DNA from: Saccostrea echinata
Lineage: Eukaryota
Length of the DNA stretch: 64,000 nt
Assembly (NCBI RefSeq): GCF_033153115.1
Contig: NW_026889754.1
Coordinates: forward strand, 16,368,001-16,432,000
Reading direction: 5' to 3'
The notes under the pieces were generated by a model that was given only the letters and a program-made list of their open reading frames with translations, was not told where the DNA came from and made no database searches. Every line of letters starts with the position of its first letter. Position 1 is the stretch's first letter. Positions 17,608 to 53,000 of this stretch are shown here, piece by piece. The position numbers and the translations under genes are program-made.

Positions 17608-18522
17608 CGCAGGTAGGTTAAGGCTTCCCGTAGAATATCACAGTGCACTCTGTGCCTTCACTTCTCTGAACCACCAAAATATGACGTCATAATGGAAAAT
17701 GACGTCAAGTCGCTGCCAACTTGAGGTGTTATGACGGGGAGAGTGTCATGAACTTTACAACTTTACACTTTATTTCAAACTGCACGTAAAATGCGAGATA
17801 CCTATTGCAAAATTCACGGGTTGTTAAAGGTTTTTTAAGTCTTTGATGTCCGAATATTTTATAAATACACCGCTTACCTACCCTTGATTGATATTCAGCA
17901 TGTTCAAAATGCTTATGAAAAATATACTTTTGAAATGTTCTGTGTTTTATACCCATGGTTGGAGGTAGAATTTATTTTGTGTGTATAAAAGAGTCCGGCG
18001 CAGGTGATTAATAAGGATTAATCTGAGAATTTTTGTGGAAATCTGTAAGAAGAGGTTGTTCTCTAACCGAATCTTGCTTGGGAAAAATGTGTGTTGGCTT
18101 TGTTTTAATACAGATTACGATATTGTCTGGAAATACCCTCAAATTTGTAGGTAAGTTAAATTTCTCACGAAATATTTTGTACCCAAGTAATACTATGACT
18201 TTTCCCAAGCACATTTCGGGTACACAAGGATACGATGAGTTCATTTATATACCAAAATGTTATTAATTATGTGTTAATCAGCTGCGCCGAAGCGATTTAT
18301 ATGAAACACTTCAAAAAATTATAAATGACCGTCACGTGATCAACAAAATAATGTGATAACATACATGTAACAAATATGTTAATATATAGACGAGGAAACC
18401 CTCTATATTAATTGGAAGTACTAAAGTTCAATACTTATAAATTAAAACCAAAACCGACCTCGCAATGCAATATTATGTTTTGAGCGCATTTTAAAGCTTC
18501 GGGAAGCATTAACATTGCTGCG
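17608..18522. mobile_element. Non-autonomous 915-bp element with CGCAG-type TIRs related to the 18.4-kb transposon
   Basis: Left CGCAGGTAGGTTAAGGCTTCCCG, right CGGGAAGCATTAACATTGCTGCG; TT on both flanks (2-bp TSD). Confidence 0.8.
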
Positions 18523-29700: not shown

Positions 29701-32700
29701 TGAAGAAATTTTGAATATGACGTAAAACAGTACACAATCCTCTGTCAATCCATGATCCTCCAATAGCAATGACAGGGATTATATGTATATTTTTTGTCAT
29801 TGCACTGAAATACAGGAAGAAACTGCACCTTTCAGTCAACGGAAAGGTAACTAAAAGATTTCTGAAAGATGACTGAATGGTAGAGCTCTGCTTTCAGCAA
29901 TCTTTCAGCCACCTTTCATTTAACTGAAGGAAAGACAATGATCCTGTAAAATTTTAACATGAAATATATGGAGATAACGAACAGTATTCAAGCTCAAAAG
30001 TCCTTTCAAGCAATACAAATGAGGAGCAGAGCAAACATGGACTCTAAAACATCAGAGGTGGGATCAAATGCACTAGAGGAGTAAGCATCTCCTGCCGACC
30101 GGTCACTCCTATGGTGTGTTCCTTGTCATGATCGGGAAATAACGGAAAATCCGTCGACAATTTAAGGTTTAAATAATGACAGACAGGAGTACAAGCAAAC
30201 AGTCGGAAAGACAGACAGGTATTTCCCGCTTATACAGCTTTCGCTTGTGCTTTTCACAAAGCATCTCAAATTGGTTTTAAATTATCATTTAGAATGAAAG
30301 GGCTTGTATAAATAAATACAATAATTTTTTTTAAATAAAGTATTCGTTTATAGTTTAAAAAACCCATATCTATAATGCTTATTACAACTATGACAGGTTT
30401 GCTCAAATTTTAGGGAGGTTATTACCTCGTATTTTGGCCTTTAATATACTGGGGCTTGAAGAACAGTTGATTCTATTACAACTCTCCAGCTGGTACCAGT
30501 ATTCTTGTCCTGGGGTCAATGATCCTAGGTCATAATATCCCATGTTACTCTCACCAGGATCTGTAAGATTTGTAATTTTCGTCCATTTTGATCCTTGTTT
30601 GTGTGATAATATAAAGAACTGTTCTATTCCTCCTTTAAAATTCGATATCCAGGTAAGATTGATATATCCACCATCATAAGAATTCCATGTAAAGTTCAAC
30701 GGTGGCTGAGGTGTATCTTCAAAATTATAGCGAAGAAAAACATGACAGCACTTGCAATGATCGAGTAAAATCCTAATTCTAATAAATATATTTTATCGAT
30801 ACGTAGAAAAGAATACAATCTTGAAAATTACTATTCTAGTACTCCATTGAATAAGTTCTAGATAGTTGTCAGATATTCAAAAACAAATAAATACATAGCA
30901 GACTTTGGCCTTTAGTCTTACGAAAAATAAGATACAATAAAATGCAGATTAATAAAAACATCACATCCATTTAAAAGACCAAATATGCCTCTGTGACGAA
31001 AATAAAGCTATCAATATTACCTTCAACGTTAATTACAATAATGAGAACTGTTTTTTCATTGTGCATCAGTGAGTAGTTTCCGAAGGATATGCGGTCAGCA
31101 ACAGGAAAGGAGCTGTTGATCCAGTATTTGTACGGAACATTTTCTCTATTTGAAACATTAGTCTTAATTGACGAAGAATAAGGTCCGGACCAAGCTATCC
31201 CTGCTTGGGAGACTAGTGGGTTTGCGAGCACTGGTACTTTCACAATAACCTTCTCACCAGGACCACTTACTGAACCATAATTAAGTTTGAACGACATGGA
31301 GCTGTCAAGCTGAAGATCACCTGTATAATCAAAATAAGAAGTAATTACGTTTAAGTATAATCTTTCCTACAAAGGATAAAGTTAAAGAAAGGAATCTTTT
31401 GTGCTTTTATTCTAGCCACAGGGTGAAGAAATTGAATACTTTATGCATAAATTTGTTTGAATATTTATTTGATAAAAAAAAATCGGCATTTAGTATACAG
31501 TTTGTTATACTGCTGTTCTTGAATAAAAAAAAATAAAATCTACATTTTCTGCATAGTTTTTAAATAAATCTTTTTATCCCCTTTGAAAGAAGGTGAATAT
31601 AAGGAACAGTGATAAATCTACAAAAATTCAAATCTGTAGACAGGGCATAAAATACTGACCCCTGGAATCTCCAAAGGTGGGATCAGGCGCACAGGAGGAG
31701 TAAGCATCCCCTGTCGACTGGCCACACCCGTTGTGAGCCCTGTATACTGATCTAGAAGACTGAACGTGACGTAGTTAAACTTAGTATAAAATAAAGGCCT
31801 AACAATTGGTCTGAAACAAATCAGCCACAATACGACCCAAGATATTCTCTCTCTTACCCCTAATAGCCCCCTATTGTGGTTCATAACCCTATATGGACCA
31901 TGATTAAAATAATAGTACAGTGAAATCAACGTTCTTTCTTACTCAGGTGGTATTTGAAAAGAATGTTATATGAATTAAACCTATTCTTATCATTCATTTA
32001 TTACCTCTATTTGGAAATTGTCACAGTACTTCATTTAAAAAAATGATAAGTTTTTATTTATTTTTTTTTTTTTTTTAGAATTTACATGCATTATTCTTAC
32101 CCAGGGTATTTTTGTAATCTTCCCAATGTGTAAATTATAAAACATAAAAATGGAACCTTCCAAATATTTTCTTTGTCCTGGCATAGTTTTCACTTAAAAT
32201 AGATTTTTCTTACTTTCGATTGACATGTATCATAATTGTAAACAAATTATTTACATAATGTTCCAGCTTTAATATAAATATTGTAAAAAAAAAAAAAACT
32301 ATACATTTAGCAGAGTATTTTATATCACAGTGTACCTAATTAAATCTCTAAGTAGATTTAATAAATTTACTGGTAAAAAATTAAATGATATTGATGTTGG
32401 TTTTGAACTAGACATTCTTTTAAGAGGAAATGTCAATATTCCTATCAAACAAACTGTAAATATTTTAAGTATCATGTTATGTAGTATATTTGATGATAAA
32501 AGATATTACATGTAACGTTAACAGTAAATAACCGATCGTTGCGTCCAAACTCTTGAGAATGACCCTCGCAACTGTAAGTTCCCGTGTCAGAACATTGAGC
32601 CCCTTCTATTTCAGTGTAGTTCAACCAACTTTGGAAGGCTGTCTTTAAAATACTGTTACCACCAACTTTTCTAAGTGTGACATTTGGGGTAGGATTTCCT

Positions 32701-33773
32701 GCTACAAAACACGACAGTCGTAGAGGATTCCTTTCTTTCATGTCTATTGCTTCTTGCATCATACCATTTATATATATCTTTGGATCTGATAAATCTGTAA
32801 AAAAAGATTATAGTTATAAAATGTGGATATATAATACAAATATACAATGCGCAAATGTAAAATCCAAATATTATTTTCTTTATCTGTCTTAGTATAAAAA
32901 TAATTGAAAAGAAAAATCATGAAAAGTGTTTAAAATTAACTATTGATTATAACTCTATATTTCTATTTTAATCCGTAAAAGTTTACAATACCTTTCTACA
33001 CATCTACCACATATATTTTTAATGTTCTCTACTTTTTTTTTTAATGTTTTCTATCCAAGTAATAAAAAAAATAACAAAAAGCCACTAGCCGAGTGTGTAT
33101 ATCCACTGACCTAACATTTATTCTATAACCGATTCTAGATCTGAAATAAGTACCTGCATCAATAAAATACGCCAAACATTTGAATCAAAATAAAATCTGT
33201 TTATAATAATATATCCCTAATAAAAAATGATTGAAATTTATTTTTCAGCTTTCATTAGGTTGTAATAACATTACCAAGCTTCGGGATCAGCGTATAAATT
33301 GATTAGCACAGTACGATCCAACACCTGTTTCAGTGTAATGTTTAAATATATGCTGATTGACTTGTTTGTGGTGTACATCTTTCTTTTAAGATGAGAGATA
33401 GGGATGGTTTCAGTGTAATGTTAAACATTTGCTGATTTGACTTGTTTGTTATGTATATACCTTTCAATAAAGATTAGGATGGAAGTATTTAAAATAGTCA
33501 GTGTGTTTTAATGTTTAAATCGAACGCTAAAATAAAATTTTCGTAGCAGGCAAATAAACTCGTTCGAAGTAACAGGATGCAGTCTCTTCCTCCCTTAAAG
33601 AGTGCAATTATTAATGCATTCATAATGTTTTTTTCCAGGTTTAATTCAATATGAAAAGCCGATTAAATAAATAATTTAATTAATTAATCAATTAAGCAAT
33701 CAAATAATAATGAACAGAATAAAATACATTGGTCTATACATATAAAAATGATGACATAAAATAAAATAAAACA

Positions 33774-33855
<82 letters not shown>

Positions 33856-36800
33856 CATATCCAAAGGTCGAAGATAATAAAAATATTTCATGGCCGATAG
33901 CCCTAAAAAGAAGGAAAAAAAATGTATACTTCATTTGATATTTCTCGATATAGTCAATTAAAGGACATGTATCTAATTAAATTCAGGGACATGTATCTAA
34001 TTTAAAGACATTGTCCTATCTATATCTATTTGTGAAGGAATACATGACATGCTACTTCACGCAAAAGTTTTGTCAAGATTCATTTCCCTTAAGCTAAGTT
34101 ATCACAAAGGTAAAAAAAAAAAGAATTAACAATTAAAAATATTCTGCAACCTATATGCTTTTAACTACATCAGAGAAGAAATTAGTAGTTCAAAATGTAG
34201 TTGTTAATTGTCAGTTGGCCATGAAGAGTGAGATTGATTGTACGTTGTTTTAAATCCGTTCGAGAATTTTTCTCTCATATAGAGACGTCACCATCTAGCA
34301 GTGAGGGTTCTTTATCGTGCCAACGCCTACCGTGACACGGGATCTCGGTTTCTAATGTCTCATCCGAAGGACCTGCAACTTTCACTTCAAAGTGCTGAGC
34401 GCTAGGCAAAGGATTAGTTGCTACCATTTTTTTTATCGACTTAAGTCAATCGCGGCCGAGATTCGAACACACGACTTCTCGATCACGGAGCGAACACTCT
34501 ATCGACTGAGCTACCGTGACAGCATGATCTGTGAGAAAGTTTAAATAAACTGTTTGTAATACTAAATCCATTTCTTGACTGTGTTTTAAGCAAATATCTG
34601 GAAAGTCAAAGATAACGCAGCTAGGTTAAGGACGTCCATGTGTAAACAAAGGAAAATCAGCAGCATATAAACGGTATAATTTTTAAACGACATTTCAAGG
34701 CAATAAAAAATTACTTAAATAGGATCTATATATGGTTCAATTACAACAGTGCTCCGGATCATTTTTCAACAAGGACATTACTGACGTCAGCTGTTTATCA
34801 CGTGACATATCAAAAATAGACAAAACATACCTTCCTTCTTTCAACACAAAAGTTCAAGGATATACGACATGTGTTGAGAATAATGTCTACTACTAATTAA
34901 AAGTCCTAGAATTCCTTAACCTGAAAAGTGCTGGGAGCAAGTATAGCATCCTCGAGAACACAGTCTATTTTAACTTCAAAAACCTTCGACCGATACATAA
35001 TCATGGTATTTACCATTTACTTGCAAGAAAAAATGCTGTTGTAAGACATGCACAAGTTGCTCCCAGCACTTTTCTTGTAAAGAAATACATACCCTCAACA
35101 TATTTATAAAGCATAAGTCCATACATATAAGGTATATCGTTGAACTTTTACGTTTTAGCAGATTCGGATTGCTGTTTATGCAAATGAGCTCATATAAAAC
35201 GCACTGATGATCGAGATCAAGGGCAGATAATTCCACTATTTTGAAGTTAACAAAGCGCGCAAAATTCGACTTTAGAAAGAAAGAACACGTTTCCAAGATG
35301 TATTCATAATATCTTTGGAATAAAAAAAAGTTTAAACTCTTTTTAATGATTTATATTCTTGTTTTCAGGTTGAAAACCAGGACTGAAACTGCAGATTTGG
35401 CTAAACTCTATTATTTCAAGCACTGCTATGAAGGGGCCTTAGTGGGCGTTTCCAGGCTTTATTACCAAAGACCATCGATTTTTTTCTCATGTATTTCAAT
35501 GAATAAACGAAATAAAGTTAAATTGTTGTCTTTGTTATCCCCAAAGGCTTTAATATGGCACGATTCATGGAAGTGCTGGTAAAATTAAACCTTGGATCCA
35601 CCACTCATATTGCATAAAAGAATCATACGTGTACATAAAACTCAAGCTGCAAGTCACATCCCGTACCAAACATTCTAACAAATGCTCATGAGCAGCTCAT
35701 GAGACTCACATGAGAACCTAGTAAGAAATGTATGCAAATTAGGTAGAATTGGATTTTGCTCATGTGCAGATTGTTAGTCTCTGTTAGGGAGGAAAATACG
35801 AACCAAAATGCACATGTGCAAAATTATGCTCACTTGGATGCTCATGAGCAAAAGTCTATTCAATTTGCTCACGTATGAACAGCCTTATATTAAAGATATA
35901 GCATTGGTAGTAATTTTTCTAAGTTCAATTTTCTCACGTGAGCATGAGGTTAGGAAATTGGACATAGTCAAAATTCAGTATTACAGGTAGAACCAAAACC
36001 AAAGAATGACAAGTTTCATTTCCTCATGTGAGCATTTCAAATGCTCACGTGAGGAAATACAATACTTTGTCACTCCAAGCTTTTACAAGCCTTCATTAGA
36101 ATTGCCCATGTGTTAACTGTTAATGCTTCCTGATGATAGCATCACAAATAATTGGGGGCCAGGCAGGAATTTCTTAATTTCTTGAGCTTCTAATCTTCAT
36201 CCCATCATTTTGCAAATGCTTTCCTCTACCTAAACAACCTGCTGTGTCCCCCACAGTTGCTTAAAACTAGGGCAGTATCCAATGAGGGGAGCCAGTCAGG
36301 ATTTGTGCGCACTTTCAGACTAGTTCAAAATTTCAATCCAAAATGTTTGTGAGGGACATGAAAGTATATACCGGTAGATTAATTTATACAGTAAAGAAGT
36401 GAAATATGCTTTGGGAAATACATGTCATCACCATATTGAACTGGATGTCAACATTTTAAAAGCTACAAATGTATCTAATGTCCATGAGATGAGGAAATAT
36501 TTAAGATCAATTACGAATGACCATGATGCAGCCACAATGAAAAAGAACTGTGATATATATATAGGAAAATTTCAAAGATTTGCTGGTATTAAAAGAATGC
36601 TGAGAAAAGGGTAAGTGCATAGGCTTTAATATAATCCCCCTCTCACGTGTGTTAATTATTAATTAATACTTAATTTAGATAGAAATGCAGTATGTTATCA
36701 GTAATTACAGTTTAATAAATGAACATGAATTTACATCATTATTTAATGTAATTAATGTTTATATAGTTCTGAATATAGGATCAAACATATTAAAATCCTT

Positions 36801-39800
36801 AATGTATTTCAAATTCTCTATAGATTCTTTTAAGAACTATAACTATGGTAATTAAGTTAGATTAGGTCAAAGTGTACATAACAGCTCAGTGCAGTAATCT
36901 ATAATTTATCTATGATAAGATAGTTGCTTAATATTGATGCATATGATTTTTTATTGATTGGCCTTTCATGACCAATTGAACCATGAAAAATATAATATTT
37001 ACTATTAATTCAAATTTTTTGCAGATAAAAGTTGCTGATTGAGGGATCTGCAGATTAACCCCGGCCCCTTACATATAGATGGAGTTCTGAAGTTGACACT
37101 CATTTAAAGGAAATGCAAGGAAAAGGGACTTGATGAAATGATTATGATCAATTCTTATGACTGCTGGAATATTTATTTCACACCCAAGTATGATTGCCAC
37201 GCATTCAGGAATTGGAAAAAAATCTACATAGCCTGACATATCAGAGACAACTTTAATCCATCTAGTGCAGTCCAAAACTGTTGACTGGACATTTACATTG
37301 GATGTTCTAGTGTAAATCTACTGGAAATCTAACTTTTTGATAATTTATGTACAATGTGTATTGTACATAATTATACATGTATAATTACGATTAATACAGA
37401 GAAATGTGTTTAATGTAGTATATACTAGTTGTTCATTTAATTTTAATTTTTATTTAAGTTTGAAAAATGAAGTTCACTGAACATTTACGCATGTATTTAC
37501 ATGTTGCTCAAGAATATTTAAAATGTTCAATATTATTGACGAATCATATTTTAAATATACATTTATATATTATATTTGTAATCTAAATTTTATTCTATTG
37601 TTGTTTGTTCAAGTGAGCAATTGTTGCACATGAGTCTAATGAGCCTCATGAGACTAATGAGCCTCATGTGAGCAATATTTTAGGTGAGCAAAATGATTCC
37701 TCACATGAGCAAAAAATGCTCATGTGCAGAAATTTTGCTCACGTGAGCATTTCACCTAATTTGCATGTTAAATTGCACATGAGACTCACATGAGCAACTC
37801 ACGTGAGGAAATCTGGTTAGTCCTCATGTGAGCTGCTCATGAGCAAATTGTGAGAATGGTTTGGTATGGGATATATTCAAGAAATTTTATGAATAATCAA
37901 AGATAAATGACAAAGATATGAACCAGGAATTTTTTTATTCAATTAAGCATAATTTTGTAAATATACAAAAATTAACAAAAAATCAATGAAGTTAATCTCT
38001 ATACAAAATGCTTGTACAGGCTATGACAATAAAAGTCACTGAAATTGCAAGAAAATGAAGAAAAGTGATCAAAATTCAGATCATATCTTTTTTTTCAATC
38101 AATATTTTTGCTGAAAAACAACACTTGGAAGATGAGAGGGAAAAAAAAGTAAATTATTATCATAATAAAAAAATGTTTCGGTAGTGTTTTTAACCCCCCC
38201 AAAAAGAACAACTCGATAAATGAATGCTTCCAACTTTTGGAAAATGTTCAAAAATCAAAATAATTTTAAAATATTTTTTTGGAGATTAATTTAAGAACAA
38301 TCATGGCAGATGTGCAATATCCTGAAGCTGACCTTGAAATAGTTAAATTCAAAAACATTGAAAAAATGTAAGTAAGAAGATCAAGAAAGAAATTTTCTAA
38401 CATTTGGGGTATTTGACAATACAGAGAGAATCATCATGAATTTCTGTAACTTTGCGAAAGTTATAATTGGTCGTTGTACAAAAGATCCAGAATGCATTCA
38501 ATGGTGGTCATCAAAGGAAAATGATAATAGTGCTATTGTAAATGTTAAGTCTTCAAACAAGTCAGCAACATTTAGATATAGCTTTTATAATAGTGTTATG
38601 AACAAATATTCCAAGATGCACTTGCCTTATGATAAATTTGTACGCCAGTTACCACGCGTACAAAACTACTTAACACAACCAAAATACTGGAAAAACAGTA
38701 ACAAAAGTGGACAGAAAAAAGACTTCCTTGTGCAGTTTTCTTTGCAACAATGGGATTCCCTCTCACACAAAGAAAAACTTCGTCATACAATATATGACTG
38801 TTCTCCATGTGAAAATACAAAACTGATAAATTATTCAGTACTTCACAAGTCCGCCACAGAATCAACTGAAAACATCGTGCAAATGTCTAATGAACTTGCA
38901 AATGAAATTGAAAATAAAAACAGTACAGGGGTCAACAAAATATTGAATGTCTTAGAACCAATCTTTGAAAAAAAGTTTCAAACAAACTTGAAATCAGTTG
39001 TTTCTGATAGGTACAACTTAACAGAAAAACTGCCTAGTGAGCAGAAACGCAAACAAAAAATCAAGCAAACACAAGAAAACACAAACAAAATAAACCAAAT
39101 CATAACCAACAATGAAAGTGAGGTTCAAAATTTTCTTGCATCAGGGAAGTCTTACAGTCAAGTTGATAGGGATAGATTGTCCACATTTTTTGAAGCCACA
39201 AATTCAGCAAGGGAGAGAACTGTCCGTGTGTCAAAAAAAATTAAAGAAGGCTTACAAAAGGCAAAAAAACATGTGGGAAACATGGACAACTACACGTTCG
39301 ACAGAGATGGCTTTTTAAAATATATGCAGAATCTTCCATCAGGATCACGGGTTATCTGGCGCTACCTAGCGTTTAAATTTCATGTAAAAAACAAAAAAGG
39401 TCTTGTTCCAAAAAATGCTGGCCAAGTTTTACAAACATTTGCTTGTCAAAATGGTGTAAACACAGATAAATTTAATCAATATCAGCGTGTAAGTGGTAGA
39501 GACTTTGTTCAAAGGGTAAGAAGATCACGACAGAAAATTTACAAATTTATTTCTATTCCAACACCAAAACCAGCCAGAAAATTAAGAGAAGTAGTACACC
39601 AAAAACTAGAAAACAAAGACCTCTACATTGGAGAACAGATTGCCCCAAAAGCTTTCAAATCAAACAAAATCGATACATCAGGTACCCTCGCCACTGTTGA
39701 TTACACTGTATATGGGAGAATGATTCCCCTAAAAAAGATCATAGAACAGATGGCAGAAATTCACAGGGAATACCAAAGAGAAACAGACACTGATGAAAGC

Positions 39801-42800
39801 AAAACAAGGCACCTGAAGATCTGGCATGATCACTCTGATATTCTTAACCACAGCTATATCACCATCATGGTAAGCACACTTTACGACTCTGCCTCCTTCA
39901 TCACAGATGAAGAATACAAGAGGAAGTACCCAGAGCGTCCACCAGCTGATGTTCAAGCAATGGTAGAAAAGCCATTTCTCTACGTACTTGGGCAGTCTTC
40001 TAGCAGTGATGTTGACCAGCTTTCCTACATGCCAGCAAGGGTTGATGACCTCTCGAGTCTTCGGAACCAGGATGGTGACGTCCGGTACATTTTAAGATAC
40101 TTCAGTGGAGACGGCCCCGCCAGACAGTTTGAAGCTGGTCACCAGAGGGGAGGAAATTTCAGTTGTTTATGTGGCATTTGTTCAAAGGACCACATGAATC
40201 TAGAGTGTGCGTTCAATAGTAAAGCTCCAACACTTCAGGAAAGAGTGGAGATTCTTAGAAAAGGAGTGTTATGGAAACAGTTTTCCTTAACGAGACCATC
40301 ACCATTTGCCAATTTAAAAAAAATAGAAATTGTAAGAGAACTCAATGCTAGAGGGTGTGATACAGTAAACAAGAGCAAGGGTGAACTGCAGGAAGAGCTG
40401 GTAAGAACACTCAGAGGGATTCAGAGACCACCAGCCTTCTTCACAACAAGTCAAGATGTGTCAGACCTACTCCAAACTTACGAAGTACCACCAGCTGAAC
40501 CCCTTCATGACATTACGAATATCGTGCAGAACCTAATTACAGAGCTTCCCCACCATATTGATGATGCTGACACAAAGAAAGATTATGAACAGTTTTCAGT
40601 TACCACCATCGGAGACAAAAATCAGCTGAAAGGATCTGATGCCCGTCTTTTTGCAGTGAAGTTGGCAATGTTTTCACACTCAAAGTTCTCAGAGAATAAA
40701 ATTAGTAAGGATATTTATGAACTGTGCACCTGTTCAGTAGAGATAATATCCATCTGCTATAGTCCATATCAACAAAGAACAACCAAGAAAATTCTAAGAT
40801 TGTATAATCTCTGCTTCAAATTCAGCATTCTTTCAAGGACAGTTATCAGCATACCAAAGAAGATGACTACCAGAAAATTCTATGGCTCACATTTCCACAG
40901 CCTAACAGTTCACACCCCAGAAACTTTCAGATTAATTTGTCTGCGCTCCCTGATTCCAGAACAAGAGGAAAGATCATTTGGGGATCTACGAAACATCTCT
41001 CTCAACACAGCTAACAGACAATGTGGTAAAATCATAGACAATGCAGTTCTCAGGTACAATGCACAACAGCTGAATGAAAACAAAAAAGATTATGTTAAAC
41101 ATCAAGACTCGATCATCAGTCACCAAGCCAAACGTCTTCCAAAGACAGGGAACACCTTATTTGATATGGATTTCCTACAAAAAAGACCAACCTTATTTCA
41201 AACCCACTGCCAAAGGATCTCTGATTTCCTGAGTTGTGGTGAGAGCACTTGGTGGTCTATCTGCAGTGATGGCATAATGTTTCATGATGGTCCAGACGAG
41301 CAAGACTTTCAAAGTTATCCACCTCTTAGTCACTTCCGTTCCATGACAGGAAAAGATCAAGAAAGAGTATTAGAGGGGGAATGGCAGAAGTGCATTCAGC
41401 AATATGAAGACTCTGCTCTCAGACTGCCACTCTGCAAGATTAGAATTTTTCAAGAGGGAAAACTTTGCAGAATTGTGAAAAATGATGGTATGTCAAAAGA
41501 TTGTTATCAAAATTATCATCATAAATACTAAATTCAAATTTTCAAAATTTCCTTAAAATGTTAAAAATATTAACATGACCAAAAATCATTAACTAAAGTT
41601 TTGTCCTTTTCTCCAAAATTTATCAGCTGTTCTTAAAAATGACACATAAATGAATACACATTTAGCAAATCCTCCTTTCTTCAGATTTCATTAGAGCGGT
41701 GGAAGAGTACAATAGATTATCTGTCATGAAGGCATCACATACACCCCAGCAGTTGATAGGTTCTACAGCAAACAAGGCCAGCAACACAGGTATTCCTACA
41801 ATTAATATGCATACTTTATTATTCATTAACTTGTATTTTGTACTTTTACGTGTGGATATATCATAAGTATAATATTATGTATCAATTATGTCATCATGAG
41901 AGCTCCAAAATTGTGAAAAGGTGTCAGATTTAAGTGATACCTACAATTTTATTCTTGACAATTGTAATTTTGTTTTATTCTGTCACATTATGTGTGACAT
42001 ATACATTTATCTAGACTAGGATAACTTTGTGGTCACAATATGACTTACAAATTAAAGCATTAGCAACTAGAACTGTCACTGATAGGACTAATTACCCCCC
42101 CCCCCCAGGCAACTCATTTGAGGACATCCTTTAAACAAGAGACCCATGGGCCACAACACTCACCTGAGTAACTCTGGCCATGCTGTTCTTCACTATATTT
42201 CCCCTTTTGTAAAACCTAATGTGGCCCTAAACTACTTCCAGGGTTCAGGATTTGAACAATTTAGTATCTACACCACCCAAGGATGCTTCCACATAATTTC
42301 AGCTTTTCTGGCCCGTGGTTCTTGAGAAGAAGCTTTTTAATGACCTCACCCTACTTTTGTCTTTTCTTGATTATCTCCCCTTGGAATGGGGCTTGACCCT
42401 TCATTTTAACAATTTAAACTCCTCTTTACCCAAGGATGCTGTGAAATAAGTTTGTTAAGATCTGTTCATGTGTACCCTTGAGATAAACATCACTGATATG
42501 TATATAGACATAGGTAGATGGTCAGACAGACAGACTTTCTGATTCCACTTATGCCCCGAGACATTACTTGTCAGGTTATTATCATTATATTTTGAAATCT
42601 TATCTGTTTAAGGATCTAAAAAGTCACAAAGTACCAGATTGACACATGATGATGGTAATGATGGTGGTGATGGTCATGGTGATGATGGTGATGGTAATGC
42701 TGGTGGTGATAGTGATGATGGTGATGATGGTGTTGGGGATGATGGTCATGGTCATGGTGTCGGTGATGGTCATGCTGGTGGTGATGGTCATGATGGTATT

Positions 42801-45800
42801 GGTGATGATGGTGTTGGTGATGATGGTGTTGGTCATGGTGTTTGTGATGTTGGTGATGGTCATAGTGTTAGTGATGGTGTTGGTTATGGTCATGGTGGAG
42901 ATGATGGTGTTGGTCACGGTGTTGGTGATGGTCATGGTAGTGATGATGGAGATGGCATTGGACAAGAGACAGGTATTTCTACAAATAAGCAAATTTACAA
43001 TCAGAACCAGAGCATAGACACAAGTATCAAGATATACATGTATTTCATTTATCATCTTATTTATATATGAGTAATTTTTCAAAATAGTCTCCCTAAATGA
43101 AGTACAAAAGAAAGGCTTAGGAAAATCTGAAGGCTCCCACAGGTCTCAAGATGAAAATGGAAATGTACAAACCAGAGGTATTAAATTAAAAACATTTGAA
43201 AATTCAACAAAAGACCAATAGGACACAGAGCCTACCTGAGTCACTTTGGCCTTTTGCTTTTCATCAACAGATTTTTTTTCTAAATATACATGTGCAAAAT
43301 TTAGAACATGCAAAATTTAGAACATATAATCTTAATAATCTTAATTATCTCCCCTTGAAAGAGGATGTGGCTTTTTCTTGGGTAATTTTGAATTTTGAAA
43401 TTGGCCCTATGGTTCTGGAGAAGAAGCTGAAAATTTCAAAAGCTTACAATGACAATGCCGACAATAGACAACAGACAAATATTGATCCTATAAGCTAACT
43501 TAAACCTTCTGCTCAGATGAGCGAAAAAAATAAAACAAAAATTAACTTGAATATCTCTTTCACTTTCTTGAGAATGATTATCAGGTGTTTCAATTAATAT
43601 CTCCTATAAATTAACATATCAATTAAATAGTTAAATACCAGTACAGATAGGTTCCTTGTCAGATTATCATCATATATCTTACAAGGCCATTCTTAAAAAA
43701 TTGTTTGTTTGCCCTCTCCCAACCGACTGACTAAAGACGACTTGACTTAGAACTATTTTTTACCTCTAGGAAACGATATATATTTTTTTTATTCCTGGAT
43801 TTGTTCATCCTGTCCATATGTATGTTTAAGTCTTCTAGGGGAAAAAAATTTTCTCACCTACTTACTGACCCAATTTCTTACCCTGAGTTGGGAGAGGGCA
43901 AACAGACATTATTTTAAAGATTGCCTAATCTTATGTAATGCAGAATCTGTAAAGTCACAGATTACCCAAATGACAAATTATGACGGTGATGATGGGCATG
44001 GTGATGATGGTGGTGATGATGGACTTGGTGATGATGATGGTGACGATAATGGTGGTCAAAGGCATGGTGATGATGGTGGTGATGATGATGATGGCATTGG
44101 ACAAGAGAAAGGTATTTCTACAAATATGCAAATTTACAATCAGAACCTAAACATAGACTAGATTACCAAAATATATTTCATGTATTGTCTGATAAGAATA
44201 TTTATCGATGAGTGTTATTTTAAAACTTTCTCCCAGATGAAGTACACAAGAAAGGCTTGAGATAATTTAAAGGATTCAACATGTATTTTACCTTGATGAT
44301 AAGATTATTATGTTTTAAACAAAACTGTATTTATAAAATGTTCTATACATTGACACTTTCAATGGATAAACACCAGTGATGATATGTCTATAGATAGATG
44401 GTCAGACAGACACGCATACTTTGCGATTCCAGTTTAGCTTTCAGATTTTTATTGTCAGGTTATCATCATTATATTTTATAATCAAATCTATTGCAGAAAA
44501 GTCACAGATTACCCGAATGACAAGTGATTGTGATGATGAACATGGTAATGATGGTGGTGATGATGGGCATGTAGATGGACTTGGTTATGGAAGTCATGGT
44601 CATGGTGGTAATGGTGTTGGTGGTGATGGTAGTGATGGTGTTGGTGGTGATGGTGTTGGTGGTCATGGTGGTGATGGTGTTGGTGGTCATGGTGGTGATG
44701 GTGTTGGTGGTCATGGTGGTGATGGTGCTGGTCATGAGGGTGATGATGATGTTGGTGTTGGTCATGATGTCGGTGATGGTCATGATGTTGGTGTTGGTCA
44801 TGATGTCGGTGATGGTCATGATGTTGGTGATGGTCATGGTGGTGATGATGGTGATGGCATTGGACAAGAGACAGGTATTTCTACAAATATGCAAATTTAC
44901 AATCAGAACCAGAGCATAGACACAAGTATCAAGATATATTTCATTTATCCTCTGATAAGAATAGTTATCAATGAGTGTTATTCTTAAACTTTCTTTCAGA
45001 TGAGGTACACAAGAAAAGCCTGGGAAAGTTTAAAGGCTTGTACAGGTCACAAGATGAAGAAGACAGTGAACAACCCTTAGGTATTTGTAGAAAAAAAATA
45101 ATTCAGAAGTCTTCAGGCATGTTACAACTTATAGGTATAGTAACTCTCCATTATAAAGAAATCACTTATAAGAGAAGCACTTGATAATAGGAAAACACAT
45201 ATATGAATCTTGGCAAAGAATAACACTATGTTCTTTATAAAAAAATATATATATATAAAGAATCTCTGTTTAAGGGAAGCAAAATTTGAAGATTCTGTGC
45301 TTCCTCATAACCAAGGTTAACTGTATATGTACTTTCCTACCAAAAATTTTTATCAATTGTTTAAAAAGACATTCAATTAATGAGTTTCTATTAATTTTAC
45401 CAAGATGAGATAGGCAAAGAAGGCATTTGGAAATCAAAGGGTATCCCTATATCACATAACGATTACTTTGAACAAGACAAAGGTACTTCTTACACTGAAA
45501 ATTGTAATCTTAATGGTACCAAGACTTTGCTTTTTCCTCTTTGCTAAAAACATACAATTTTCTTTTCTAGAGTTTTTTTTTTATTCTTCAGTTTATCTGG
45601 ATAAAGAACACAAAGATGTTGAGAAGTCAGGGGGTTTCCATAAGTCACATGAAGGTGAAAAAGTCACAGGTAAGTCTAAAAATCAAAATAAATGGCAAAA
45701 TTTAAGGAGTAACATTAATATCAGTACCAGCAAAGCTAACAAGGCTCCTATGCTTACAGAAACCCTTTTTTACTATATTTTATCTTTAAATTTTACCTAG

Positions 45801-48800
45801 TAAACAATGTTGACTCAAAAGGAATAGGAAATTCGGCGGGTTCCCTAATGTCACAGTCAAACAATGGTGGTGGACAAGATACAGGTAAAGCTAAAAGCAC
45901 ACAATAAACAAATAAAAGAATGATTAAAGTAAACAACAGGAAAATCATCTTGACATTACTCATACAATTTAACTTTATACTCATGTCTTAATGCAAACAA
46001 GATTTTCAAAACTGTTCAAAGAAAGTGCTCTTTAATACATATCAAGTTAAAATAAAAATATTTTAAGACAATTAATGCACATGATCCTTGGGTTTGTTAT
46101 CTGTTACTAGTTATTGGAAAAAATAACAATTTAAAGGTTTTGTTGGTGACCGTCTACAGAGATATATTGAGTTGATCAATATGATATCTTACACAGCAAG
46201 GTGAGGCAGAGCCATCTCTAAGATTGATAAACCCAATACCAGTGATTTTTTTTGGGTCAAAATGCCACCGATATTCGTCTGTTTCCCCTCACAAAAATTA
46301 GCTATTTTTTCCCAATTATTAGTATATTTTTCCCAATTTCAAACTTACGAAAATTATGTTTTAATTTTGAACAAAAGTTGCTAAATTTGCTGACACTAGA
46401 GTAAATACGTTTTTATACTTCAAATCCATGCATATTAATGAATGTGTAAAACAATGTAGATATCCATACAAGCAGATAAGTAGCTTATAATATTCTCAAT
46501 GAATTGGTCAATAGTTCCCAGATACAAGTGATATTGCATGTTGACATAATGATTTTGGTTTGACCGCCATTATTACACAGAGGGTCAGGCTAATAACAGG
46601 AAATTGACAACACATAGGGTTTCACTAAAATCAGGAAAAAACAAACAGTAGACTGTTTACTTGATTATCCATATAAGACAGTTTACTAGATTATGAGTCT
46701 AAATGCTGTTTTTGTTGTTTTTTTTAATGAAATTAGATAAAGCAATTCCAAGAAAATAGAAGCTACAAGATGTGACTAATATAAGCCATGTTCACATTCA
46801 ATAGAATATTGATGTTAATATTTTTAAATTATTATTATTTGAATTTAAATCAAATTCAAAGTTAAAATCAAACAAAATCTGTTGTTGTTACTTAGTTTGA
46901 TTACTTTATGTATTTTTTAGCATTCTAATTTACTATAAATGATTTTTCCCAATTTAAAGAAAATGTCGCTAATTTTTTCCCAATTCAAAAGGAGGGGGTG
47001 GTGGTTTAAAAAACAAAAAAAAATCACTGAATACATGAAATGTGGGTAGTCACTAACAAAACCTTATAAGTATTAATGTTGCTTGTATAAATCTTATCAA
47101 AATCATATAATGGGTCAATGAAGAAATAAGAGGCACCATAGCAACTGACTATCAAAAGAAATAATAATAAAAAAAAAAATATTTAAAAAACAATTTATGT
47201 AAATTGTAAACTGTTGAAGTTCTTAATATATTTTCTCTGATTTATTCCAGTGTTTTTATCTTCCTTAACAAAAAACAGAATAACTAGTACCTGATGCCAT
47301 TCTGTTTTCTCTCTATGTTAGACTTGCCTTTTCCAAAGGAATGTTTCTGAAAATATGTCTTAACAATAAATAAAAGGCATATATTAGCTACTGATAGTTG
47401 GCATGTTCACTCTTTAATTACAATTTTATGATTTTTAGCAAAAATCATTACAACACTATGATACTAATTTTTAGTTCTGGAATTTGCAGGTGTAAAATTA
47501 CCTTCAGGGGTTTGTGTTGAAAAAGGGCAGCCATTGCAGAACAAGCGATTACGAGAATTAGCATCAGTTGTGAGCTGTAATGCAGGTAAATATAAATAAA
47601 TCTAAAAACATAATAAATAGCACTGTGTATACATGTGCATATTTGTTATTCTTAGATTGAAGACAAAAAATGCACTTTTTCATCTGTTTTTGCAATGGTA
47701 CATGTATTAAAGATTTATGTTTCAAATGTCTTTCAGTCTTTAAGACTTTATTTTGTATGTTTGTTGTTTTACATCCCTCTCAAGAATTTTTCACTCATAT
47801 GGAGACATCTCCACTTCCTGGTGGAGGGCTGCAAATTTATACCTATACTTGACACTCAGGGCCTTTGAGCAGTGAGGGATCTTTTTCGTGCCAACACTTA
47901 TTTCGTTTATACAGTCTCATCCAAAGGACTGGTCTCCACATCCCGCGGTGGATTCAAACCCATGATGTAAGGATCAGGTCCTTACTCCACAACTCTCGAG
48001 CAGATGCTCTAACCACTGTGCCACGTAGGCAACCTTTACGACTTTGAAAAAATTTTTTGGACAAGTAAAAATTTTGTTGGAACAAGAAAATTTCAGTTAT
48101 TTGTCGGAATGGCCAAGTAAGAGGAGAAAGCCTGAATATAATTATGCAACCCTGAACATAGAATTATCACAGACATTGTGAGAATGGTTTATAATGTTTT
48201 TGATATTCTCCAGATTGTTCCAATGAGAAAAAACCATGTAGGCGTAGGCTTTTTACAGAGGGACCAGGTATCTACTATACTTTTGTGATCTTGTTGAATA
48301 ATGAAGTTTTTGAATTTTTAATTTAAATCAAGTGTACTGTTGATAGACAGTAAATGCTCACAGGATATTTTGTTTACCTTAGATACAGAATCTACCGTCT
48401 ACATGGTGAAAGCCCTCCTGCCTAGCAATGACCCAGTATTGGCCGAATTCATCAAGTACAGAAGACTCCTGAAAAATGATAAATCATTTAAACAATCATA
48501 CGAGCGTGCATTAGCAAAACTACAGACTTCCATCAGCAAAAAACACAGGGAGTTGCTGGAAAGTAAAGAGCAGGAAAAATCTGTCCCTCTGATTAAAATG
48601 GCAGAGAAACTGTTACTTCGTTGGAACATTTATTTTTAGATGGTTAAGTCTTATGATCAATTTTCAAAGAATTTACGTGGATCTCTAAAAATGCCTTACT
48701 TATTAAGCACGATACTGTTTTTCCTAATAATTTATTACATAAGAAGTTTTTAAATGTAACACTGCATGGGTATACTTTATCTGTTTGTCCATTATGTATT

Positions 48801-50052
48801 GTCATGAAATACTGTCCATAATTAACTTTCACCTGGATCATAAAAAGATGATATATGCTATGGATAAACATATTGATAAAGTTCATGTAAACATGAATGA
48901 AATTCTAGTGTGATTATTTACATGGATTACATTACTTCTAAATATACCTTGTAACTTTAATATATGCACGAGCAATAGAAAGGTTTTGTTCAATCATTCA
49001 AAAATTTCTCACAATTTTCTGTATGACCTGTTTATTGTATACAAATGAATACATGAATGGAGGTTTGGGGGGTTGGAGTGGGACGGTGGCTGGTGTTTAA
49101 ATTTTCTGACCGTTAATTTTGGTTTACAAGGAGGTGGTTGGTTATCTGATATACACTTAGGATACTGTTGTGTGTTTTTGTGGGATTGAAATGTTTGCTG
49201 TAGGCTAGTAAATAACAATCATTTATATTCATTATTTTTGACTAAAAATATATTTCCAGGGCGATGCAGACTAAACATGCTAAAAATATGAATATTTGAA
49301 AATTTAAATAAAAAATTAATTTGTGTTTTAATGTATGTAAATATAGGGTCTCAGCAAAATGTTTGTAAACAAACATGAACTAAATGTTTTCATTTTAACA
49401 CATGATGTAAATAGGCCATGTCATTTACTTGTACAGCTGTACAGTGGTTGTAAACAAATGTGCATTACTATTCAGATTAAACCTTGTCATATGCATGATG
49501 CCAATTAAGGGATTTAGAGTTCTTTGATCAATTCAAAACCTAAGAAGATACAGGAATTTTAAGTAAACAACAAAGTCAACTTTCAGCATTGAATTATTAA
49601 CAAAAAATTGTAGCATGCATTTTATAATTTGATATTTCTAGTGTCTTAAATTTTTTTATTCTTTGATCTGCTTTTTTTTTTCTTTTTTTTTTTTTTATAA
49701 TATGCTGTGTTGCTTATTAGACTATGCTTCGGTTTAAAGTAACAATGATGAAAATGAACAAAATCAGTGCAGCAAATAAAATGTGCCAAATAATGTTTGT
49801 TAGGACCAACCTTGACCCAAAATCACTAACTCTCCCATGGAGAAATTAAAGGGAAAAATTCTAATCGTAGGGAAACTTCCTAGAATCTGCACTGTGCATT
49901 GATCATTAAACTTAAAATTTTAAATACATAGACATGTCAATGTATATTCATAAACATGTACTTATATATTCCTCTGTATTTTTCAAATGACAATAATACA
50001 TCTGTATCTACATTATGGTGTTATGTTTTTTGTTTGTTTGTTTATCGTTAAA

Positions 50053-50088
<36 letters not shown>

Positions 50089-53000
50089 CCACCACTTGCC
50101 GGTGGAGAGCTGCAAATTTTGACCTATACTCAGCACTCAGGGCCATTGAGCAGTGAGGGATCTTTTTCGTGCCAGCACCTTCTGCAACACGGGACCTCAG
50201 TTCATACAGTCTCATCCGAAGGACCCGTCTCCACATCCCACAGTGAGATTCCTTACTCCGCGACTTATTGTGTTATGAAAAACACTCCTTAATGTCGATT
50301 AAGAGTTCAACTTCATGACTGTGAGTGTTCGCCAGTCAATACCTCCAATTTAATAACAGCAACATGTGTTTGTATTGTGTATTCACGGCATGAACTTTAC
50401 ATTTTGACAAAAGAAAGGTCCAAAACCCTCTTCAACTTTTTTGACATGATATTGATACCTGCCGTGTTCTACTTCTGTCTTGGTGGGCAATTCTAGAGGA
50501 GTTTCTACCAAGTGTTCGATGTAATGATCAACTGCATTGAAAACAGATACTCTGCTGTGATTCATATTTTAACAGCAGTAAAACAAAACAACATTTGAGT
50601 ATATGATTTTTTGTTAACTGGCAAAACACTTGTCCGCAGGCAGGTACTAGTCATCAAATAACTTGCCTGCCAAACGAAATTGGTTGTCCCCGGCATTGGG
50701 GAATGCTATTTGTCTAGCCCTTCACCCAGAACTTTTGTAATTCCTTTGATTTTCAACCCCAATCATAACACACAGTTCATTTTTTTAGGAAAAAAGGAGG
50801 GTTTTTGCAATTGGCAATGGGACATAAATTTGGCCCTACATGGGGCAGTGGAAAATTCCTGTATTCAGCAGATTTAATAAAATTGAATGTATAAATATTA
50901 ATTATTATATTATTATTATATTTGTCAGGATGTAGGTTCATGGATAAGCATGACCTGTAAAATACAAGAACATTGGACCCCCCAAATGCTACGCATTTAT
51001 TGACAGGGTTCAAGGTCAACATGCTTTTTATTTAACCAAGAACCAAACTGTTTGCCTGAGGCCATTAGGCTGAAGGAGAACAGTTTGGTTTGAGGGTTGA
51101 CAAAATGCACTTTGCCCAAGAACTCAGTCAATAAATGTTTTGTTATACCTTTTATTTATTTTGATTCTTTTTGACATACAGTACATGTATGTTCTAGCTT
51201 CCGTGATGTAAACTGATGTTACACTCGGTCAATTCCGTTACTGTTCCAATAAATGCAAATGAGATTTAGCTATCATTCAGCACATTGTGTGACGTAAGCG
51301 TTCCAATATCTAACTCTGCGGTCAAACATCTTTTTTTTCTAATCGCTCAGTAAAACATTGCAATTGATAGACTTTTTAAGCATAGATTGGTATAGAGAAA
51401 CTTTTTTTTAAAAGGTATAACAAGAAGTTATATTTGACATTAATAAAATAATGCAGTACTCTTTGTGAAACATGAAATAAAAATATTGTGTATTAAAGCT
51501 TTAACATGTTTTATAATGTCAATGTGCGACTTCAGTTATAAACAATTGAAATTGATGCTGAAACACACACCAAAAATATATATATCCATATAAAACAGTG
51601 CTTGTTCAAGTTGTTGTTACTTAAAATTTCATTTTTTTTTTTTTTAGAGTTGCACTTGTTCATATTTTTGTGCTCTTGTGCACCATCAGTACAGTGAATC
51701 TCAGACTCCCATGGGGTATTTCATTTAAAGTGCAACAATAAATGCTAATCTTGTGCAGAATCCTACAAAACTAGACTTCCCCACAGGAGTTCGCAATTTT
51801 ATCAATAAAGTAGGGGTGAAACGATACACCTCCTTCACGGTTCGATACGTATTGTATAATTTTGTCTCGGTTCGGTTATTTTCGATACGATACATTTTGA
51901 TAAAAGGAAACAAATTCTATGTTGTTTTATGCTTTCTTTTTCTAAATCTAGTCACATATTTTACGAATTTTATTTGCAAATTGACTAGAAGAAATTGATT
52001 GAAATTATTTGACTGTCAAAAATTATTTTACAACCTATCAGTCATCAAAAATTTACGTTTTCTATACTTATTTATTCTGAGTAACGTGTTATACCTTATG
52101 CCAAACCCGACTGAATAACGATCCCGACCGAAAAATGAACCGAACCGAAAATTAGAGATTTTGCACCGTGTATCAAACCGAGAAAAAATACCGCGGTGCA
52201 TCGATACCGCGGTGAACCGTTTCACTCCTACAATAAAGTCAATAAAAATCACTCGATTGACCAAGCAATGAGCTATGCGTTAGCATAGCGAACAGTTGCA
52301 TTCCTGTTCGCTATGCTAACGCATAGCTCATGACTTGGTCAATCGAGTGAATTGATAAAATTGCGAACTCCTGTGACTTCCCATATGGGGCCCCAGTATT
52401 TAAAACTTTTTCAATGATGATAAACTTGAGTGTTCGGAGTATTATAATAACACGAAATATCACTTCATCTTCTTTTATGCAATAACTAAAATGTACAGTA
52501 TATGCTATCACACTATAAAGAAATCATACAACTTCTTTTTAAAAGAAGAACCCTCAAAAAGAATATGAACCACGTGGTCTGTAACAATATTCCGGCGAAT
52601 TTTCTTAAAATTACGCATTTCATCACGGTATAACAGTCTAAATGAAATTGTAAACTTACAATGAAACTCTGTCCTGCAAATATTCGGCATCTACCATCAT
52701 GTCAGGCAACAATTTTGTTGTAAATTCCATCAAGACACTGGAAGAAACAAGCTTTTCCCACGCACCTGCCAGCCCCAGTCGTGACGAGACGGTGAAAGCG
52801 CCGAGCCGACGTAGATCAGCTCCAAACGACATTATGTAATTTCATAGAAAATACATTTATGGAGCTGATTTAGCGATCAAAACGAAACAAACAAATAACA
52901 TTTATAAGAAACCATACAAAACAAATCTTTAAAGTATAGATAAATAAGTATATAAAAATAAAACACGTATTAAAGTTTTCTCATGAATAATTATAAAAAT

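Follow-up and report, generated by a model that had tools for sequence, protein, structure and literature searches.

Saccostrea echinata carries a predicted RAG1-fold transposase gene whose conserved end domain is probably joined to the core by a long acidic linker of symmetric exons

The systems nearest to the gene considered here are RAG1, the RAG1-like (RAG1L) proteins such as ProtoRAG, and Transib. Transib is grouped with EnSpm/CACTA, Mirage, Chapaev, Plavaka, ESTA and Lanisha in the CMCT clade, whose motif set comprises a D-D-E triad, an H(3-4)H motif and a C(2)C pair after the second aspartate (PMC12730594). For RAG1L, TransibSU and ProtoRAG the limit is an identity with the RAG1 core above 30% (PMC4411706). 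Exon number varies among CACTA transposases (PMC4158355), and spliceosomal introns also occur in TLEWI, a bivalve transposase (10.1101/656579). Here we compare with these systems a transposase gene on the plus strand of a 64,000-nucleotide stretch of Saccostrea echinata DNA (assembly GCF_033153115.1, contig NW_026889754.1, positions 16,368,001 to 16,432,000; hereafter the window). The reading that we prefer, with a probability of about 0.7, is that this is an intact gene whose end domain is spliced to the core through an acidic linker, and that the linker grew by exon copying and triplet expansion under weak constraint.

The core lies in a stop-to-stop frame of 1,051 codons (38376-41531, +), and its methionine at 38436 agrees with the start sites of relatives. 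A phase-1 donor at 41487 would end the core exon; past it the unspliced open reading frame (ORF) runs on to a stop at 41531, where the ORF track ends, as a first-pass annotation of the window had pointed out. That annotation had also proposed 11 tail exons with AG/GT ends, lengths divisible by three and no in-frame stops, and all of them were recovered, each in phase 1-1. Conceptual joining of 38436-41487, the 11 exons and 48383-48639 gives a single stop-free frame of 1,631 amino acids with its only stop at the end, the total that had been estimated. The parts of the gene model are as follows.

38436-41487 (+): core coding exon, 1,017 codons, with the N-terminal region, the RNase H-type core and a SAP-like insertion; phase-1 donor at its end
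41685-41789 (+): linker exon 1, 105 nucleotides (nt), phase 1-1; no paralogy to the small exons
42613-42972 (+): linker exon 2, 360 nt; Gly/Asp/His/Val microsatellite exon of unit 1
43088-43177 (+): linker exon 3, 90 nt; small exon of unit 1 with a weak replacement acceptor
43944-44111 (+): linker exon 4, 168 nt; Gly/Asp exon of unit 2
44237-44284 (+): dead small exon of unit 2; acceptor retained, in-frame stop, 3' part and donor lost
44497-44874 (+): linker exon 5, 378 nt; Gly/Asp/His/Val exon of unit 3
45000-45080 (+): linker exon 6, 81 nt; small exon of unit 3
45405-45482 (+): linker exon 7, 78 nt; older paralogue of exons 3 and 6
45592-45669 (+): linker exon 8, 78 nt; older paralogue
45801-45884 (+): linker exon 9, 84 nt; older paralogue
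47475-47585 (+): linker exon 10, 111 nt, or 96 nt with a stronger-looking acceptor at 47490
48214-48267 (+): linker exon 11, 54 nt; basic C-R-R-R-L-F motif
48383-48639 (+): last exon; conserved 84-residue four-helix end domain and stop

The linker encoded by these exons is 529 residues long, with 25% glycine, 17% aspartate and 116 Asp/Glu against 42 Lys/Arg; in the three large exons the imbalance is 81 to 8. The tail is of low complexity and likely disordered, in keeping with the first-pass description of a disordered linker. In-frame alternative acceptors are found at exon 10 (47490 against 47475) and exon 8 (45571 against 45592), and the acceptor of exon 3 is weak, placed 9 nt before an ancestral AG that has been lost. 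The first tail intron contains no poly(A) signal, and an AATAAA stands at 49307, past the last exon. At the other end of the gene, a 22-codon upstream ORF (38304-38372) with two overlapping donor-like sites lies 60 nt before the core methionine and could be a 5' exon or simply an upstream ORF.

The phase-1 exon pattern is not due to chance. A strict splice rule was applied to AG/GTA donors between 41500 and 48380, and the open symmetric exons that they close were counted in each phase: 11 of the 14 plus-strand donors close such an exon in phase 1, two in phase 0 and none in phase 2. Ten of the 11 phase-1 exons are those proposed and one reflects an additional in-frame donor at 45134; exon 5 was missed, its acceptor having failed the criterion. 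The same rule gave none on the minus strand, 0-2 in 14 control segments and a mean of 0.19 (maximum 3) in 200 block shuffles.

Relatives of the gene tie the last exon to the core. An end-domain profile was built from a related locus (L001) and seven Mytilus proteins, with the window excluded, and among 1,079 window ORFs it picked the last exon at E 5.5e-13 (runner-up 0.3). The domain is predicted to fold into four helices (predicted local distance difference test, pLDDT, 92.1) and contains no cysteine, in agreement with the helical terminal exon noted earlier. Foldseek searches with it returned nothing at E<=0.001, the best structural Z being 7.4, to generic bundles, and the last exon had no hits in a word-index search. 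A FAM13A/Sld2-like identity was considered and dropped, its Atlas score of 0.77 being below the level of a lead and unconfirmed by Pfam. We fetched 184 relatives, iterating the profile; 86 of them have a complete core end, and in 28 of these a linker (19-182 residues) and the end domain occur in the same record. These figures fall short of the true linker lengths, since the core profile extends into the tail (an alternative core end gives about 234 residues for relative P0127). Sources were checked for 24 relatives with the end domain, and 13 are ENA/Logan contig proteins with no named gene model. L001 has the same plan, with a phase-1 core donor, phase-1 small exons, a KRKLF exon and a last exon; it has fewer exons, and apart from the basic motif none matches the linker exons of the window. 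The C-R-R-R-L-F motif of exon 11 is paralleled by C/A/I-K-R-K-L-F in seven of 13 bivalve-type tails and in L001. Differences in the KRKLF block among Mytilus gene models were discarded as evidence of exon skipping, as they come from different predicted copies.

These comparisons support the assignment of the last exon to the transposase gene, and by the same sequence comparisons the order core, linker, end domain is a family trait in which the window copy stands out for its 529-residue linker; the linkers of relatives are much shorter and often not acidic. The first-pass annotation had called such a tail unusual for a DNA transposase, which holds for the length of the linker and not for the plan, common to the 28 relatives, nor for introns as such, intron-bearing bivalve transposases being known (10.1101/656579). 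It had also proposed a check of whether, in other copies or homologues, the end domain directly follows the core; this is so in none of the 28, the linker always lying between. In one relative, P0133, the tail closes with a THAP domain (E 4.7e-12) in place of the helical end domain, possibly a fusion or a gene-model artefact.

The core is predicted to fold like RAG1 and Transib, as a DDE transposase-type protein. A model of residues 423-1017 (pLDDT 90.6) matched RAG1 in Foldseek at E 5.7e-9, and ranks 1-46 were all RAG1, BbRAGL or HzTransib. Structural alignment (VIA) gave Z 16.3 with a root-mean-square deviation of 4.3 over 394 aligned residues, against Z 10.9 for the P element and 6.3 for Hermes, and identity in the alignments with RAG1, RAG1L and Transib is just 9-15%. 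The motifs follow in the order D-D-E with a cysteine pair past the second aspartate and H821-x4-H826 preceding the glutamate. In 23 aligned sequences there is no variation at D465, D559, E842, E845, H821 or H826, and hardly any at C577 and C579; we take E845, by analogy to RAG1, to be the catalytic glutamate. The transposase identity first proposed is thus upheld by conserved DDE-type motifs and a RAG1-like predicted fold.

Sequence searches place the core in a large family. A word-index search with the core found 37 relatives, the named ones all bivalves, and a profile search found 6,874 clusters at E 0.001, among which the four that were looked up are from Branchiostoma. In Pfam the core had no family match at E 1, and 30 relatives had no transposase family, with SAP in two and THAP in one; in one scan SAP matched five of 31 sequences. 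Searches of PDB sequences with phmmer and a profile found no RAG1 match for the core, and the profile gave only a weak match (E 0.036) to a chain that we take to be of SAP type; the SAP-like insertion itself lies near residues 624-660. Among 92 relatives with the cysteine motif after the second aspartate the spacing is C(2)C in 48, C(1)C in 40 and C(3)C in four, and C(1)C (C577-x-C579) is the conserved form in the window protein and its bivalve clade. A C579-x2-C582 pair is also present in the window protein, although C582 is not conserved. Chapaev transposases have an N-terminal Chapa zinc finger, with or without a RING; the consensus here contains an HxxxxCxxC..H motif, and there was no hit at E 1 among the Pfam profiles scanned, a set that did not include Chapa. 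A tree (FastTree, 85 rows that each cover 85% or more of the catalytic stretch, supports not shown) contains several diverged lineages within one genus.

How does the gene compare with the described systems? RAG1, RAG1L and Transib are the best structural matches of the predicted core and share its D-D-E, cysteine pair and H(4)H, yet the low identity, the lack of a PDB sequence match and the SAP-like insertion set the window core apart. It falls short of the 30% identity that delimits RAG1L; RAG1L proteins end in a Cx2Cx3GHx4C tail (PMC7204232), whereas here a helical, cysteine-free end domain sits on a long linker. RAG1L elements have a convergent RAG2-like gene beside them; no RAG2-like partner was found here, and the broken minus-strand coding-like pieces at 50.4-52.8 kb have no Pfam match. 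The transposase is not RAG1L. With the CMCT clade, the gene shares the D-D-E in an RNase H fold and the H(3-4)H, and 48 of the 92 relatives have C(2)C; the difference lies in the C(1)C of the window protein and its bivalve branch, and in the missing match to a Pfam transposase family. The C/DxxH signature that places Kolobok in the hAT/P/MuDR group does not fit the core: its conserved motifs are the cysteine pair and H(4)H, and its Z for RAG1 exceeds those for P and Hermes. On the model, the transposase would work like RAG1 and Transib, and we place it near the CMCT clade, in no named lineage. TLEWI is likewise a transposase of bivalves that has spliceosomal introns and lacks clear terminal repeats, but belongs to the DD36E Tc1-like superfamily (10.1101/656579), while here the introns sit in the tail and have multiplied with duplicated exons. 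Human disordered proteins encoded by tandem symmetric exons share the symmetry, the low complexity and the internal tandem duplication (PMC3632108); those are host genes, and here the array lies inside a transposase gene. The literature searched, including Table S1 of PMC12730594, holds no description of the family or of such a tail, and a name may exist in Repbase or in Data S1/S4 of that paper, which lay outside its scope.

The array bears traces of its own history. Self-alignment reveals three intron-plus-exon units that are 74-80% identical across 308-743 nt: exons 2 and 3, exon 4 with its dead partner at 44237-44284, and exons 5 and 6. Exons 3, 6, 7, 8 and 9 are linked at z of about 5-11, the best links of exons 7-9 being at about 5-6. 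Exons 4 and 5 match exons 7 and 9 in their non-repetitive 3' parts, donors included (z 5.1-8.1), which suggests that the large exons probably arose from the same ancestral exon as the small ones, through triplet expansion. Eight of the 11 exons thus look like copies of one ancestral exon, and growth of Gly/Asp microsatellites was likely added to the copying. Between exons 3 and 6 there are 12 non-synonymous and four synonymous codon changes in 26 codons, and their identity (73%) is below the 79-86% of the paired introns; the exon sequence appears to drift about neutrally, as would be expected of a neutral tether.

The growth of the linker can be pictured as follows. The founding intron would have been in phase 1, so that only copies of 1-1 exons could keep the end domain in frame; one small exon would have been copied in tandem, and triplet repeats would have lengthened the large exons. 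Tandem duplication of a phase-1 exon behind a conserved phase-1 intron accounts for the symmetry without any need for regulation, and symmetry is therefore no separate evidence for it. In the protein, the core would cut and paste DNA using D465, D559 and E845 with a Cys2/His2 zinc site; the linker would be a tether under loose constraint, in which the reading frame and the splice sites count but the sequence is free to vary; and the basic RxL motif and the helical end domain would serve nuclear import or partner binding. Some exon skipping is likely tolerated, as a by-product and not a regulatory device.

Several points weigh against this account. The triplet-repeat exons are almost bound to be open in a second frame as well (0-2 stops), which makes openness weak evidence, and under the strict rule L001 has only two phase-1 exons against one in phase 0 and two in phase 2. 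The splicing of the core to the tail exons and end domain, though likely, is a prediction from the DNA sequence. Given the loss of the ancestral acceptor at exon 3 and the death of one paralogue, some of the 11 exons may be unused. The roles suggested for the RxL motif and the end domain are presumed by analogy only, and the gene could not be linked to any terminal inverted repeat with a target duplication. Apart from these points, in nine of ten listed read runs, whose kind was guessed, the word share was 0.28-0.41, where 0.27 would be expected from the core alone and 0.43 from all exons; we treat this as a lead only.

Other explanations share part of this evidence. It is scarcely credible that the gene ends at 41531 and that the downstream exons are chance or foreign. 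There is an in-frame stop past the donor, and 58 of the 86 relatives with a complete core have no end domain in their record; yet 31 of those 58 stop no more than 20 residues from the core end, and among 16 inspected records the seven closest end in G/S+M/K at the position of the window's donor, which points to read-through at the phase-1 donor such as splice-blind gene calling would give. The window-free profile, the plan in the 28 relatives and the chance control argue the same way. We also give little credence to a decaying or partly dead tail, in which the microsatellite exons or exon 3 would be relics and the protein would be shorter than 1,631 residues with the conserved domain still terminal. 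The dead exon and the lost acceptor of exon 3 fit it, as do AAG acceptors at exons 2 and 7 and the failure of exon 5 under the strict rule, but all 11 donors are intact and all lengths run in threes although the flanking introns have diverged by 14-21%. Domestication, by which this would be a host gene that no longer moves, bears on mobility only, is compatible with the exon history and seems to us unlikely: the many introns, the intact frame and the absence of clear termini recall the low-copy, intron-bearing TLEWI of bivalves (10.1101/656579), while the position inside an intron of an Ig/FN3 gene amid other repeats, the diverged lineages within one genus, the 6,874 clusters and the intact catalytic residues speak for a mobile family.

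The first-pass annotation had inferred free skipping of the exons, and with it a linker of variable length open to regulation at the isoform level. A regulated cassette array of this kind strikes us as rather improbable. Controlled alternative splicing would then set the dose of acidic linker and so tune the enzyme, the linker acting, for instance, as an auto-inhibitory mimic of DNA. Every exon can be skipped in frame, in-frame alternative splice sites are present, the large exons are strongly acidic, and the C-terminal tail of vertebrate RAG1 is acidic (PMC7204232). Duplication alone, however, explains the symmetry, the exon sequence is about neutral, relatives cope with far shorter and often non-acidic linkers, and the linker exons are unmatched in L001 except for the basic motif. 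Equally doubtful is the wider proposal that the family is an unnamed, large RAG1-related animal lineage, marked by the SAP insertion, the basic RxL motif and the tethered helical end domain, in which the skippable acidic exons of the window copy form a splicing-controlled brake or ruler on transposition, in parallel with the acidic tail of vertebrate RAG1. Were regulated inclusion of acidic exons true, it would offer a direct test of acidic-tail restraint on RAG-type enzymes; without regulation, the locus is a gain for annotation and a clear example of a linker growing neutrally. On the preferred reading of an intact gene with a copied and expanded linker, the window copy records the birth, expansion and death of exons within a transposase gene. 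The analysis points to a very large RAG1-fold transposase family outside Pfam, with named members from bivalves and amphioxus, and to a conserved end domain that is overlooked where gene callers stop at the first intron.

The gene lies antisense within an intron of a minus-strand gene with Ig and FN3 domains (59932-30403), and an inverted repeat brackets it.

32795-53475 (-): host-gene intron, 20.7 kb, phase 1, with the transposase gene antisense inside
34616-34642 (+): left arm of a 27-base-pair (bp) inverted repeat (26/27 match, E 1e-6) that brackets the gene
53038-53064 (-): right arm, partner of 34616-34642

Ig hits fall at 57381-57755 and 32472-32807, and exon-like ORFs of the host gene at 59624-59932, 58018-58383, 53354-53800, 30971-31366 and 30403-30792 (all -); the FN3 label is our reading of the sequence, with no Pfam hit. 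CMCT elements have 5'-CA..TG-3' termini and target duplications of 2-5 bp, and the bracket can be read either in this way (CAG..CTG, flanked by CG) or in the Kolobok manner (TTAA/GG..CC/TTAA); Kolobok elements duplicate TTAA and have 5'-RR ends (PMC9587614). The bracket contains TTAA, and reading it as an insertion at TTAA requires an empty site that is a perfect 24-bp palindrome. Since a different repeat, at 17610, is flanked almost identically, the transposase may sit inside an older element. A CACTGTG at 49890 was dismissed as a terminus, no left partner or target duplication being found, and fragments of the flanks had no match in loci L001-L008 or in the fetched proteins.

Other repeats and coding remnants surround the gene. 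Facing it, broken coding-like pieces at 52832-50383 (-) belong to no Pfam family, the first being 77% identical over 58 residues to Saccostrea echinata LOC133203193. Upstream of it lie broken exon-like pieces at 34840-35580, 36378-36612 and 37025-37240 (+), with a good donor at about 36612 ending one of them; the plus-strand scan covered the first two, and there was no Pfam match. A nested element at 35658-37872 is bounded by inverted ends of 44 bp and is rich in short subterminal repeats, and a small element at 51782-52375 has 25-bp perfect inverted ends, a palindrome at 52246-52353 and an apparent 8-bp flanking duplication. A satellite array with a 166-bp unit occupies 55436-57026, and a diverged piece of it (42198-42485) lies in the second tail intron. 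Two ORF fragments at 11549-13479 (-) resemble decayed pol of a long terminal repeat retrotransposon, with no Pfam hit at E 0.01. Two repeat copies about 80% identical (9221-9800 and 17634-18449) start just past TTAA and are Kolobok-like, and a 61-bp tandem array at 5712-6088 is rich in a palindromic word, which we take to be typical of the end of a non-autonomous DNA element.

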